Position numbers and translations under genes: made by a program | Assembly: GCA_040386075.1 (NCBI GenBank) | Contig: JAZKGE010000027.1 | Location: forward strand, 171,403-235,402 | From: Bacteroidota bacterium | Lineage (GTDB): Bacteria > Bacteroidota > Bacteroidia > B-17B0 > Aurantibacillaceae | Length of the DNA stretch: 64,000 nt | Reading direction: 5' to 3' | The notes under the pieces: model-generated | What the model was told of the DNA's origin: nothing | Databases searched by the model: none | The model's input: only the letters and a program-made list of their open reading frames with translations | Part shown: positions 4,538-7,905 of the stretch, piece after piece | How positions within the stretch are numbered: position 1 is the first letter of the stretch | Layout of the letters: each line of letters starts with the position of its first letter

Positions 4538-6104
4538 ATGTATTTAAATCCATTGCATTTAAACAGTTATCTTTTGTTAAAAGCCCCTTGCGAGCAACGT
4601 AGGTACCATAACGCATATCATGGTATCCTTTCAGTTGATGCGCATCCGGGTTAATAGATATCATCACACCTTTTTCTAAACAATAAGGAATCCATCGCCA
4701 GTCGATATCCAAACGGTAAGGATGTGCGTTTAATTCAATCACTACTTTATTAGCTGCACAGGCATCTATTATTTTTTTGTGATCAATAGGGTAGCCGGGA
4801 CGACCTAATAATAAGCGACCTGTTGGATGCCCTAAAATGGTGGTGTATGGGTTTTCAATGGCTTTAATTAAACGGGCATTGGCTTTTTCTTCATCCATTT
4901 TTAAGTTGGCATGAACAGAAGCTACAATGAAATCAAATGTTTTTAAAATGTCTTCATCATAATCCAGGCTACCGTTTCCTAATATGTCGCTTTCAATTCC
5001 TTTAAAGATCTTAAAAGGAAACAATTGTTTATTCAACTTTTCAATTTCCTGCTGTTGCAATAGAACAGTTTCTACTTTTAAGCCATCTGCATACACGGCT
5101 GTTTGAGAGTGGTCGCATATTCCTAAATACTGATAACCTAATTGTTTACAATACACTGCCATTTCTTCCAGGGTATTCATGCCATCACTATAGGTGGAGT
5201 GGTTATGTAAAATACCTTTCAGATCGGTATATTCTATTAATTTAGGTAATTGATTGTTCTTTGCTTTTTCCAGTTCAAATAAACCTTCACGTAATTCAGG
5301 TTCACAATACTGAATATTTAAGTTAGAGTAAACAGATGCTTCGCTCTCATATTTTTTGGTTTGAAGGGCTGTAAAATTAATGCCATCCAGATGTTCTTTA
5401 ACCGAAGAGGTTTCTACTAATTTTCTGTAAAACAAATTGGGATTTACCTGAATAAAGTTTAAAGGAATAGTTTCAGAAACAAATTCATCCAGATCAATGT
5501 TTTCATCTCCAACCAGAATGTCTATTTCTTCGATCGTTTCGGATTTTCGATACATAGCGCCTGTAAAACTTACCAGGTCAGTTTGTTCTTTAATGGCATC
5601 AATGACAGGCTGGCCAATTTTTTCGGCATAAGCATAATGGAACCAACCTGTATTTTTAATTTTGAATTGGATATTCTGGATAATAGTATTTTGTGTTTTT
5701 TCACCAAAACCTTTTAATTCAACTAAACGATTTTCGTTGCAAGCATATAAAAGTTCAGTAACACTTTCCAGTTCAAGTTCAACCCATAATTGCCTTACTT
5801 TTTTCGGGCCTAACCCTTTTATCCCTAACATGTCTACTACTCCGGCGGGTGTGTTGGCCATCAGGTCGCGCAATTCTTTGGTTGTGCCCGTTGTGTTAAA
5901 CTCAATGATCTTTTCGGCAAGGCTTTTGCCTATACCATCTATTTTAGTTAATTCTTCAACGGTAGGATTTGTAAGGTCAAGTCTTGTTTTACTTAATTTA
6001 TAAGCGGCACTGTTGATCGATTTTATTTTAAATGGATTTTCATTATGAAGCTCCATTAACTTGCCGGTAATTTCTAAAGCATCTGCTATATCTTCGGTTG
6101 TCAT
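4509..6104 (-). CDS. polX: PolX-family protein (helix-hairpin-helix Pol-beta-like N-terminus + PHP phosphoesterase domain)
   Basis: HhH motifs (IDGIGKSLAEKI, IKGLGPKKV). Pol-beta-like GAMYRKSETIEEIDILV segment. C-terminal PHP motifs (LHNHSTYSDG, ICDHS, ASVHA, LGHPTGR, NPDAH). Confidence 0.8.
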   Translation of the reverse strand: MTTEDIADALEITGKLMELHNENPFKIKSINSAAYKLSKTRLDLTNPTVEELTKIDGIGKSLAEKIIEFNTTGTTKELRDLMANTPAGVVDMLGIKGLGPKKVRQLWVELELESVTELLYACNENRLVELKGFGEKTQNTIIQNIQFKIKNTGWFHYAYAEKIGQPVIDAIKEQTDLVSFTGAMYRKSETIEEIDILVGDENIDLDEFVSETIPLNFIQVNPNLFYRKLVETSSVKEHLDGINFTALQTKKYESEASVYSNLNIQYCEPELREGLFELEKAKNNQLPKLIEYTDLKGILHNHSTYSDGMNTLEEMAVYCKQLGYQYLGICDHSQTAVYADGLKVETVLLQQQEIEKLNKQLFPFKIFKGIESDILGNGSLDYDEDILKTFDFIVASVHANLKMDEEKANARLIKAIENPYTTILGHPTGRLLLGRPGYPIDHKKIIDACAANKVVIELNAHPYRLDIDWRWIPYCLEKGVMISINPDAHQLKGYHDMRYGTYVARKGLLTKDNCLNAMDLNTFESYLSAKK

Positions 6105-6179: not shown

Positions 6180-6740
6180 TTAGGGTAATCTGTTTATTAA
6201 ATTGATCAATGTAGTATCGTTAGCATTTTGTATTGCTCCACTTTCAAAATATTTAATATCACCATTTTTATCAATTATTAATTGTATGGGATAGGTTGTA
6301 ATTTGAGATTCTTTTTGTTTCAAAATAGATAAAATGTAATAGTTTGCATCATTTATAAATGTAAAGTTATGTATGTTGCGGTTTTTTCGTTTTAGAAAAT
6401 CTCTTACCACTTTATCTCCGTTTTCCGTTAGGAATATACATCCTATTTTTTTCTGGTCTATTTTAACTACTAAAGAGTCTAAAACCGGCATTTCTTTGAG
6501 GCATGGCCCACAAACTAAATTCCATATATTTATAAAGTAGTATTCCTTAGATATCAATTCAGGGTATTCGGTTTTAAATATTTTTCTTAAATAGGTCATG
6601 CCATCATTCTTAGCGTTTTCTTTGCTAGGAAAAATGGATTTGTTTTCTTGTGCCACTTTATACTGTTGATAATAGCGTGACAAGTAGTAGGCGTTTACAA
6701 TTAATGATATTGGTAATAAAACCCGTAATACAAATTTCAT
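6180..6740 (-). CDS. TlpA/AhpC-like thioredoxin-fold thiol:disulfide oxidoreductase, membrane-anchored
   Basis: N-terminal anchor, then FINIWNLVCGPCLKEMP with a CGPC active-site motif in the usual W-x-x-C-x-x-C context. Confidence 0.7.
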   Translation of the reverse strand: MKFVLRVLLPISLIVNAYYLSRYYQQYKVAQENKSIFPSKENAKNDGMTYLRKIFKTEYPELISKEYYFINIWNLVCGPCLKEMPVLDSLVVKIDQKKIGCIFLTENGDKVVRDFLKRKNRNIHNFTFINDANYYILSILKQKESQITTYPIQLIIDKNGDIKYFESGAIQNANDTTLINLINRLP

Positions 6741-7309
6741 TATTTAAATTTATTTAAGTTGCTAAACAACAAAGTGTCTTTTATTACATCAGTAAATAGT
6801 GTGTTTTTGTAATACTCAATATCACCATTTTTGTTAATAATGAACTGCGCAGTACGTTCTTTAAACTTCATCTTTTTTTGGATAAAAATCGATGAAATAA
6901 AGTCATTCAAATCAGGAACGCATATGAAATTTTTAAAGTAGAAATTATGATTTTTTTGAAATTTCTCAATTGCTGGGTTATCCATTTGTGAAACAAAGAC
7001 AAAACCAATATCAGTATTTTTATAATAGTAGGCAATGCTATCCAGCGTTTTCATATAGATATATTGAGATTCAAAATTTAAAGTAAGGGTGTCCCAAGTT
7101 TGGATAAAGAAATGCTTTTTTGTTTCATAAGCCACTGAATTTACCTCTGATAGTCTATCTTTAAAGTTTTCAATACCTGTTGTTTTATCTACTGGTTTCA
7201 AATCATATAAGTTTTGTGGTAAATTTTTTACGTCAGATAAATACTTCCGTATTAGGCAGATATTTAATATTACTGATAGTATAAATATTCCAAGCAATAG
7301 TTTTTTCAT
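6740..7309 (-). CDS. thioredoxin-fold-like paralog lacking the CxxC motif
   Basis: Same size and layout as 6180-6740. At the equivalent place FFIQTWDTLTLNFESQ replaces W-x-x-CxxC. Start moved to the second Met (MKKLLLG, nt 7309) because the first ATG lies inside the 7322-7352 hairpin. Confidence 0.5.
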   Translation of the reverse strand: MKKLLLGIFILSVILNICLIRKYLSDVKNLPQNLYDLKPVDKTTGIENFKDRLSEVNSVAYETKKHFFIQTWDTLTLNFESQYIYMKTLDSIAYYYKNTDIGFVFVSQMDNPAIEKFQKNHNFYFKNFICVPDLNDFISSIFIQKKMKFKERTAQFIINKNGDIEYYKNTLFTDVIKDTLLFSNLNKFK

Positions 7310-7321
7310 AGTTGTATTAAT

Positions 7322-7352
7322 ACCCAAAATAGAATCAAATTCTATTTTGGGT
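7322..7352 (-). terminator. perfect 14-bp-stem hairpin between the Cys-rich gene and downstream thioredoxin-fold genes (possible intra-operon attenuator)
   Basis: ACCCAAAATAGAAT-caa-ATTCTATTTTGGGT read directly. No clean U-tract follows on the minus strand, so a partial terminator or processing site is more likely than a full stop. Confidence 0.45.
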
Positions 7353-7371
7353 AAAATTAAGAAGTGATATT

Positions 7372-7905
7372 TTATTCAGCAATTACTAATAATTCAGAGT
7401 TCAAAATTTGATAATCACCTTTCTTAATAATTAAAGTGTAGTCTTCAGATTCAACAGTGAAATCGTCAGGAATTGTAATGACCGCATTTTTTATTCGATT
7501 TATTTGTGTCATTTGTAAAACCGGGTCTCTATTTGGGTCAAAGGTTTCGTTATTAATTAGTCCTGTGGTCAAAGGTAGGCTAACTTTAACGGGTCCGTTA
7601 TTACCTGCGACAACCTTTGCTCCTTGAATAATTACACCTCCTTTACATGCTGTTATACACCAGCCATGATTTCCGCATTGGCCCCAGCATTCATATAAAA
7701 TTGTATAACATCCGTCCAGCCAACTGTGACCTAGAGTTGTGTATTTACAACACTCTAAGGGTTTATTTGCCGGATCTACTGGTTGGGGCGTTAAAATAAA
7801 TGTTTCAGTTATGATTTTTGAAGTTGCGAGCCTTGCTTCGTTTGGATTTCCGGCAAAAGTGTTGATACTTGTTGCCATGCAAAGTAACAGAATTAGTTTT
7901 TTCAT
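7372..7905 (-). CDS. secreted cysteine-knot-like protein of unknown family
   Basis: Signal peptide MKKLILLLCMATSINTFAG. Seven Cys within residues 52-87 (ECCKYTTLGHSWLDGCYTILYECWGQCGNHGWCITAC) and none in the remaining 90 aa. Confidence 0.6.
   Translation of the reverse strand: MKKLILLLCMATSINTFAGNPNEARLATSKIITETFILTPQPVDPANKPLECCKYTTLGHSWLDGCYTILYECWGQCGNHGWCITACKGGVIIQGAKVVAGNNGPVKVSLPLTTGLINNETFDPNRDPVLQMTQINRIKNAVITIPDDFTVESEDYTLIIKKGDYQILNSELLVIAE

Follow-up and report, generated by a model that had tools for sequence, protein, structure and literature searches.

Genes 1, 2 and 3 form a cassette on the minus strand (6180–7905) of a 64,000-nucleotide stretch of DNA, here called the window, from contig JAZKGE010000027.1 of a Bacteroidota bacterium (assembly GCA_040386075.1; genome G000, completeness 98.9%). 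Gene 1 encodes a secreted protein rich in cysteine. Genes 2 and 3 encode two thioredoxin-fold proteins, and the active site is lost in the former and present in the latter. The sequence evidence suggests, with a probability of roughly 0.55, that a dedicated pair of periplasmic thiol-disulfide oxidoreductases serves gene 1 as a client, and that this client is dispensable. Rather than a toxin system, the cassette appears to be a folding or redox service of its own.

The linkage of gene 1 to thioredoxin genes is the strongest result of this analysis. The original prediction, made from the letters of the window, named such linkage in other genomes as a check on itself, and gene 1 homologs adjoin a thioredoxin-fold gene in nine of ten contexts, seven of them non-syntenic. 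In these nine, the gene directly downstream of gene 1 has the same orientation and encodes a CxPC thioredoxin, always of one subfamily. The contexts of the metagenomic family members P0004–P0009 and P0014 are outside the count. The order of the window is a single GTDB family of uncultured Bacteroidota. Among its 185 genomes (one genome per species), the thioredoxin subfamily is found in 23, with one to five copies each, and the gene 1 family in 7, so that chance adjacency is negligible.

In the window, in G027 and in the JGI contig L003, gene 1 is followed by a dead (CxxC-less) copy and an active copy, and the three loci are syntenic with ispD and PolX flanks. The same three genes are found in the first cassette of G032 with a response-regulator flank, in G022 with aspS and superoxide dismutase flanks, and in G102 with a radical-SAM flank. 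The second cassette of G032 adjoins the first and consists of a gene-1-like gene and a CKPC thioredoxin. A double-module gene 1 with one CKPC thioredoxin is seen in G115 and in a Logan contig, and gene 1 with a CIPC thioredoxin is seen in G030. Gene 1 thus occurs without any CxxC-less copy in G030, G115 and the second G032 cassette. In G022 (L101/L125), the signal peptide and the mature part of gene 1 are in different frames (316–480 and 434–889), which corresponds to either a frameshift or an assembly error. P0009, a near-identical metagenomic relative of the G022 homolog, is intact.

The three co-directional open reading frames (ORFs) of the window were recovered by ORF calls where they had been predicted. 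Based on the ORF and its translation, gene 1 (7372–7905) encodes 177 amino acids (aa). Gene 2 (6740–7309; 189 aa) starts with ATG, and a TTG at 7327 is also possible. Gene 3 (6180–6740) encodes 186 aa. Nucleotide 6740 is common to the stop codon TAA of gene 2 and the start codon ATG of gene 3 (TAATG). All three genes are under purifying selection: against two orthologous loci of about 70% identity, dN/dS is at most about 0.1 where measurable, with dS saturated.

The N-terminus of the gene 1 protein, MKKLILLLCMATSINTFA followed by GN, is a Sec-type signal peptide of about residues 1–18. It is followed by a low-complexity linker, a T-P-Q-P-x-x-P strand, a three-stranded sheet that bears the cysteines, and a C-terminal beta/alpha domain whose last motif is K-x-G-x-Y-x-I. 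The mature protein has seven cysteines (C52, C53, C66, C73, C77, C83 and C87), all within residues 52–87 (7645–7752, minus strand). These had been described as the only cysteines of gene 1. The count holds for the mature protein, while an eighth, C9, had been overlooked inside the signal peptide. C9 is not conserved. A lipoprotein anchored through C9 was considered and rejected, as there is no lipobox, C9 is not conserved, and LPAM_1 matches in only 2 of 17 members. When 12 and 17 family members are aligned, C73 and C87 never vary, and C53 and C66 are at least 90% conserved. C52, C77 and C83 are extras specific to the subgroup of the window. Other conserved residues are P40 and P42, in the P-x-P-x-x-P strand before the first cysteine, and G163 and Y165; the strictly conserved residues are the cysteines plus G163 and Y165. 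Several members have exactly four cysteines per domain, and in one the entire gene 1 module is present twice. Odd numbers of cysteines (5 or 7) occur commonly among the members. Because the three extra cysteines give an odd total, a free or exchangeable thiol is likely in the gene 1 protein of the window.

Two AlphaFold2 models (pLDDT 63 and 67, pTM 0.58–0.59) agree in secondary structure. They contain an N-terminal antiparallel sheet of strands 34–40, 53–61, 66–73, 80–87 and 90–93, then a strand at 106–111, a helix at 128–139 and five further strands. In the hairpin register, C53 is opposite C73 and C66 is opposite C87. By this register, the four conserved cysteines would most likely form two cross-strand disulfides, C53–C73 and C66–C87. 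The description of gene 1 as cysteine-knot-like is not supported, since the cysteine region is not an autonomous domain of six cysteines. A cystine knot has six conserved cysteines in a small autonomous domain, with three disulfides in the knotted order C1–C4, C2–C5 and C3–C6, whereas four of the seven are shared across the 17 members, in a region that is part of a two-part, beta-rich protein of about 145 residues, and their register suggests simple cross-strand pairs.

Gene 1 represents a protein family without annotation or structural relative. No match was found in Pfam, NCBIfam, PADLOC, PHROGs or PDB, either by sequence or by profile. The cysteine pattern had not been recognized before as that of a named family, and none of the families in these collections, housekeeping families included, was matched. 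With both models, Foldseek found nothing below E = 0.8 in PDB; weak matches to lipocalins and a GH95 domain (probability at most 0.13) were disregarded. An exhaustive phmmer search of 1.84 billion representative proteins returned 12 representatives only, and word-indexed protein searches returned few relatives. Essentially nothing was found outside the GTDB family of the window in a draw of 401 genomes across the class. Weak matches in G009 and G074 are unrelated lipoproteins. The C-terminus was rejected as a sorting domain of the type IX secretion system, as Por_Secre_tail / TIGR04183 had no Pfam or NCBIfam match at E <= 1 for gene 1 or at E <= 5 for the 17 members. A Trp-quinone cofactor subunit of the MauA/QHNDH type, considered for the richness in Trp and Cys, was also rejected, as the family does not conserve its Trp residues. 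G569, from a different family of Bacteroidia, encodes (L018, 1459–1746, minus strand) a secreted protein of 95 aa, CTVYDGFTDSWYTHTYSCFFCWGGSNNAC, that matches the first 76 positions of the gene 1 profile (E = 1e-5). No thioredoxin is nearby. This protein may be a stand-alone version of the cysteine domain of gene 1.

Genes 2 and 3 are paralogs over their full length, with 27% identity (E = 1e-14). Both N-termini have a short basic stretch and then one hydrophobic helix, as read directly from the sequence, which fits an N-in membrane anchor with a periplasmic thioredoxin domain. The predicted pair of membrane-anchored paralogs sharing one nucleotide is thus upheld. The active site of gene 3 is W73...C77-G-P-C80-L-K-E-M-P, with CGPC at 6501–6512 and the cis-Pro at Y150-P151. 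Gene 3 passes the Pfam cut-offs for Redoxin (29.9 bits against 26.6) and AhpC-TSA (29.3 against 26), in accordance with the predicted TlpA-like context of CGPC. Its best NCBIfam matches are TlpA, ResA and DsbE, all far under the equivalog cut-offs; the scores are 36.9 against 230 for TlpA (NF047696) and 35.3 against 170 for ResA (PRK03147), too low for orthology. PDB matches are Etrx1 (2yp6), ResA (4nmu) and TlpA (1jfu), with E = 4e-5 to 1e-4, and StoA. In the alignment with Etrx1, CGPC falls on the active site and Y150-P151 on the "IPTEYLID" loop. These similarities place gene 3 as a TlpA/ResA-like member of the superfamily, not as an ortholog. W73, C77, P79, C80, E83, P85, L87, D88 and P151 are invariant in nine subfamily members, and the signature is W-x3-C-x-P-C-[ILV]-x-E-[MI]-P-x-L-D-[ST]. 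The back-translated pattern PC[ILV][KAE]E[MI]PxLD is generic and returned mostly proteobacterial TlpA/CcmG-like genes, with two useful full-length relatives only, both from the family of the window.

In gene 2, W-x-x-x-C-x-P-C is replaced by TWDTLT (residues 71–76; 7082–7099) and a three-residue insertion, and the cis-Pro is lost. The original prediction had located this replacement correctly. CxxC is missing in all six gene 2 orthologs, one of which keeps a single Cys, and their cis-Pro is variable. Gene 2 alone matches nothing in Pfam, NCBIfam, PADLOC, PHROGs or, by profile, PDB. Its dN is 0.24–0.32, against 0.15–0.18 for gene 3. The dead/active tandem recurs in at least 14 genomes. Its order is constant and the two genes usually overlap or abut, and the neighbors in the genomes without gene 1 are mutually unrelated. 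In a maximum-likelihood tree of 48 thioredoxin-fold proteins of these loci, the CxxC-less copies group into a small number of old clades, at least two changes of the label are required, and their subclades largely parallel those of their CxPC partners. These clades indicate that the loss of the active site was ancient and the dead copy was retained as a partner. Gene 2 is therefore an old, conserved and selected partner and not a decaying duplicate.

Other loci of the subfamily carry different genes beside it. In G136 (L129), an ORF of 98 aa (6602–6898, plus strand) lies upstream of an extra anchorless CQPC thioredoxin, which is followed by a dead/active pair. It has six cysteines in a stretch rich in Trp, Gly and Tyr, CFCWQVGGGDNCWRYECNCVSGNNHYHFYYTNC, and an "LTPNP" motif, and resembles the N-terminal part of gene 1. 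Its N-terminus is charged and lacks a Sec hydrophobic core, and against the hidden Markov model of the gene 1 family it reaches no better than E = 0.07. Paralogs starting with MA(A/E)ETQYT.N.G...NL.GTGTL are found beside subfamily thioredoxins in G136 (L129, 8868–10991) and G189 (L128, 18–818), with no Pfam assignment. The loci L117, L119, L121 and L137 of genus g33 contain another branch of the thioredoxin-fold subfamily, mostly CxxC-less. These genes follow PadR-like regulators and membrane proteins of about 290 aa; the C-terminal part of the membrane proteins is itself a match to the thioredoxin profile. Here the dead fold seems to be put to a separate use, of a sensor or regulator type.

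A stem-loop with a 15-bp stem and a 3-nt loop (7321–7353, minus strand) lies between gene 1 and gene 2. It had been noted before, although as a 14-bp hairpin at 7322–7352. Its folding energy is -18.2 kcal/mol (z = -5.1), and none of 200 shuffles folds equally well. A hairpin is present at the same position in six of nine loci (the window, G027, L003, both G032 cassettes and G115), which upholds it as an element of the cassette. Among close relatives the changes are compensatory, and the GC-rich sequences in G032 and G115 are wholly unrelated. Conservation of the position without conservation of the sequence indicates that the hairpin is a selected feature of the cassette. It is a candidate for a partial terminator or a 3'-end stabilizer, which would set the expression of gene 1 above that of genes 2 and 3.

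Neither DsbB nor VKOR was matched in the G000 genome, and DsbA gave a sub-threshold DsbA-like match only. A DsbD-type electron transporter is present (contig C41; a frame of 714 aa with a DsbD_TM score of 85.9 bits), as are 17 frames of the Redoxin family. This inventory agrees with PMC6671954, where Bacteroides are stated to be without general machinery for disulfide formation, and where the disulfides of bacteroidetocins are said to be probably the work of a thiol oxidoreductase encoded in the cluster.

Based on these observations, the following can be proposed. The beta-rich protein of gene 1 would be exported by Sec, and the periplasm-facing CxPC domain of gene 3 would act on its cysteines. 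Gene 3 may reduce or isomerize them, so that thiols are corrected or held and the odd cysteine is perhaps protected, or it may be the only local catalyst for them in the cell. Reduction or isomerization is favored by the TlpA/ResA-type site CxPCxxE[MI]P and the presence of DsbD; the lack of a detectable DsbB, VKOR or clear DsbA also bears on the role of gene 3. We infer that gene 3 is not part of a general DsbA/DsbB pathway. Alternatively, in a cell without DsbA/DsbB, gene 3 could be a local oxidant. Gene 2, translationally coupled to gene 3, would work with it as a non-catalytic binding or scaffold subunit. By analogy with the b' domain of protein disulfide isomerase, the two probably co-operate, as indirectly suggested by the translational coupling, the conserved tandem and the largely parallel trees. 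The stem-loop would probably raise the level of the client transcript above that of the enzymes.

Several facts weigh against gene 1 as the client of a dedicated pair. The sequence is compatible with catalysis in either direction, and the predicted disulfide map is taken from the strand register of models of moderate confidence (pLDDT 63–67). The stem-loop has no U-tract and is not called by a canonical terminator scan; a hairpin is absent from G022, and also from G102 and G030, where the genes abut or overlap. In the exceptional tenth context, P0011, the contig is 1.6 kb and has no thioredoxin within about 350 nt downstream. This contig (L138) also carries copies of a repeat of about 150 nt on both sides of P0011 (125–274 and 1033–1281), with similar translations and the same orientation, which suggests a repeat-bounded or mobile context. 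The dead/active tandem is found without gene 1 in at least ten genomes: G001, G018, G061, G104, G136, G150, G151, G185 (twice), G189 and G191. In addition, G018, G151 and G021, whose loci are sisters of loci with intact gene 1, retain about 25 codons from the end of gene 1 as a relic directly upstream of intact thioredoxin genes. The G018 relic (L132, about 4840–4915; ...IIIYKPGSYTIIKENLL...) is interrupted by stops and followed by a hairpin. The G151 relic (L136, just upstream of 3969) is also stop-interrupted, and reads IKYKAGNYSVVDL, a stop and MKLKITRTN, where G102 has IIYKPGKYTIDHSKMKLTINRTN. The G021 relic (L116, just upstream of 1501) is truncated and reads DNNVLFLEAGNYDVFNCK, where G030 has NNDVLIIKAGFYEVFNKK. 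Since three relics stand beside intact enzymes, gene 1 was lost at least three times while the enzymes were kept. The pair exists without gene 1 and survives its decay, so the enzymes must serve further clients or a different role, with gene 1 perhaps one opportunistic client only. Judging from these loci, gene 1 appears to depend on the thioredoxin, and not vice versa. The original proposal of a dedicated folding or reduction pair therefore stands in that the cassette is conserved and gene 1 is linked to a thioredoxin-fold gene, and has to be relaxed in that the pair is not strictly dedicated to gene 1. The deletions that produced the relics spared the 3' end of gene 1 each time, and a promoter or hairpin for the downstream genes might lie there.

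Persistence of the thioredoxins where gene 1 is repeatedly lost, the functioning of the pair in a set of genomes most of which lack gene 1, and the lone gene P0011 would be expected if there were no functional link, and gene 1 were a lineage-specific secreted protein upstream of a general-purpose thioredoxin pair, perhaps sharing its promoter. However, adjacency in seven non-syntenic contexts and with at least five thioredoxin subclades, singles and pairs alike, is hard to explain without selection for linkage, and strict conservation in gene 1, apart from G163 and Y165, is limited to the cysteines. The absence of a link is thus considered unlikely. It is similarly doubtful that the conserved cysteines are ligands and gene 1 is a periplasmic protein binding a metal or cofactor, whose thiols are kept reduced by the TlpA-like enzyme. 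TlpA keeps the thiols of Sco and CoxB reduced, and ResA/CcmG do so for apocytochrome c. The active site of gene 3 is of this reducing type, DsbD is present to supply electrons, and no general oxidase was detected in the genome. His80, within CGNH, is conserved in the subgroup of the window; the sole PDB profile match, which is insignificant, is an Fe-S subunit (E = 0.17), and one family member has a weak metallothionein match (E = 0.047). Yet neither a CxxC/CxxxC knuckle nor any other known metal motif is present, the conservation of His and Trp does not extend across the family, and the cassette is unlinked to cytochrome, oxidase or copper genes. The spacing of the cysteines (x12, x6, x13) sets them across strands, where disulfides are typical.

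The original prediction compared the layout with bacteriocin and toxin operons and took gene 2 as a possible binding or immunity protein. On this reading, gene 1 would be a secreted antibacterial effector, gene 3 would form its disulfides, and gene 2 would be the immunity or binding protein. The layout of structural gene, hairpin and accessory genes could be interpreted in this way, as could the patchy distribution with repeated gain and loss within one family, and the Cys/Trp/Gly-rich peptide of 98 aa upstream of the same thioredoxin genes in G136. Bacteroidetocin clusters, too, carry a thiol oxidoreductase needed for activity; this enzyme gave no immunity (PMC6671954). The role of gene 2 in such a system is contradicted by the three gene-1 cassettes without a CxxC-less copy, which indicate that gene 2 is not an obligatory immunity protein, and the dead/active pair is common without gene 1. 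Against an effector, there is no match to a double-glycine (GG) leader, a C39/ABC exporter or other leader-peptidase export gene, a toxin domain, or a phage or defense gene. The flanks are occupied by ispD and a PolX-like gene, both housekeeping genes, and no mobile context was found. The mature gene 1 protein is 145 aa long with a conserved C-terminal domain free of cysteines, and gene 1 decayed at least three times beside intact thioredoxins. The bacteriocin reading has accordingly become quite improbable.

Genes around the cassette are ispD, a PolX-like gene, a gene for a tetratricopeptide repeat (TPR) protein and a GH3-family gene. No ABC transporter is seen among these neighbors. The Bacteroidetes -7 motif TAnnTTTG has 88 matches observed against 106 expected, with none inside the intergenic regions of the cassette, and a sigma-70 promoter scan gave the background level only. 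At 2–730 on the plus strand of the window, a partial ORF contains the polymorphic-toxin domain Ntox23 (PF15528; E = 2e-30), which is also seen in the syntenic relative L001. It was rejected as a part of the cassette, being on the opposite strand, 5.4 kb from gene 3 and behind five unrelated genes, including the GH3-family, TPR and PolX-like ones.

By analogy, the closest known systems would be astA-dsbL-dsbI and the bacteroidetocin oxidoreductase. In uropathogenic Escherichia coli, astA-dsbL-dsbI (assT) is a three-cistron operon in which the substrate gene is written first, before a substrate-dedicated redox pair, and the redox pair is also found transcribed apart from the substrate gene (PMC4152235). 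The cassette resembles this operon and dsbA2-dsbB-astA of Campylobacter jejuni in combining a gene for a periplasmic protein with two oxidoreductase genes whose products serve, or in the cassette would serve, that protein preferentially. In the astA systems, the pair consists of a DsbA-like oxidase and a DsbB-like quinone-linked membrane protein. Here, in contrast, both accessories are predicted membrane-anchored TlpA/ResA-like folds, one without an active site, in a genome where DsbB and VKOR were not detected, and the client is a 145-aa protein and not an enzyme of known function.

Bacteroidetocins (class IIf, Bacteroidales) share with the cassette a Bacteroidota host, a secreted cysteine-containing product encoded beside its own thiol oxidoreductase, and the lack of general disulfide machinery. 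They are peptides of 42 aa that carry a GG leader and are exported through an ABC transporter with a C39 peptidase, and their cluster includes a protein of five transmembrane segments (5-TM); the oxidoreductase is needed for full activity and confers no immunity (PMC6671954). Gene 1 differs in having a Sec signal peptide and a large domain free of cysteines, without a GG leader, C39 exporter or 5-TM protein. A dead thioredoxin paralog is not mentioned for bacteroidetocin clusters in the consulted passages of PMC6671954.

Gene 3 is similar to the reducing, membrane-anchored thioredoxins that act outside the cytoplasm, TlpA of Bradyrhizobium, ResA/StoA of Bacillus and Etrx1 of S. pneumoniae, in its fold, N-terminal anchor, WxxxCxPCxxE[MF]P motif and cis-Pro, and in the presence of a DsbD-type donor in the genome. 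Unlike TlpA, ResA and Etrx1, the cassette is unlinked to genes for cytochrome c maturation, Sco/Cox, Msr or sporulation. The N-terminal linker and the tandem dead paralog were also found only in the Bacteroidota family of the window among the collections searched. The tandem is reminiscent of the a / b' architecture of protein disulfide isomerase (PDI), in which a catalytic CxxC module and a CxxC-less, substrate-binding thioredoxin-fold module are fused in one soluble protein of the endoplasmic reticulum. In the cassette, however, the modules are two separate membrane-anchored and translationally coupled polypeptides. It can be speculated, as a long shot, that the tandem is a "split PDI" in which the dead fold captures clients for its coupled active twin, and that this is an unrecognized way of disulfide handling in Bacteroidota without DsbA/DsbB. 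Gene 1 and the short Cys/Trp/Gly-rich peptides of G136 and G569 would then make up a new family of redox-gated secreted effectors or signals, with strained cross-strand disulfides switched by the pair.

The principle of a dedicated oxidoreductase encoded beside its substrate is already known. What is new is the client family, the conserved dead/active membrane-anchored tandem, and a natural series of intact, partial and relic cassettes. These are of moderate interest and not a breakthrough. The management of cysteines in exported proteins is poorly understood in Bacteroidota that lack DsbA/DsbB or VKOR, and many of their TlpA-like paralogs are without assigned clients. The cassette is a concrete candidate for an enzyme–client pair, in which the repeated natural loss of gene 1, with relics left behind, serves as a built-in comparative control. 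From the tandem of inactive and active copies, it could be learned what a catalytically dead paralog adds to the handling of substrates.

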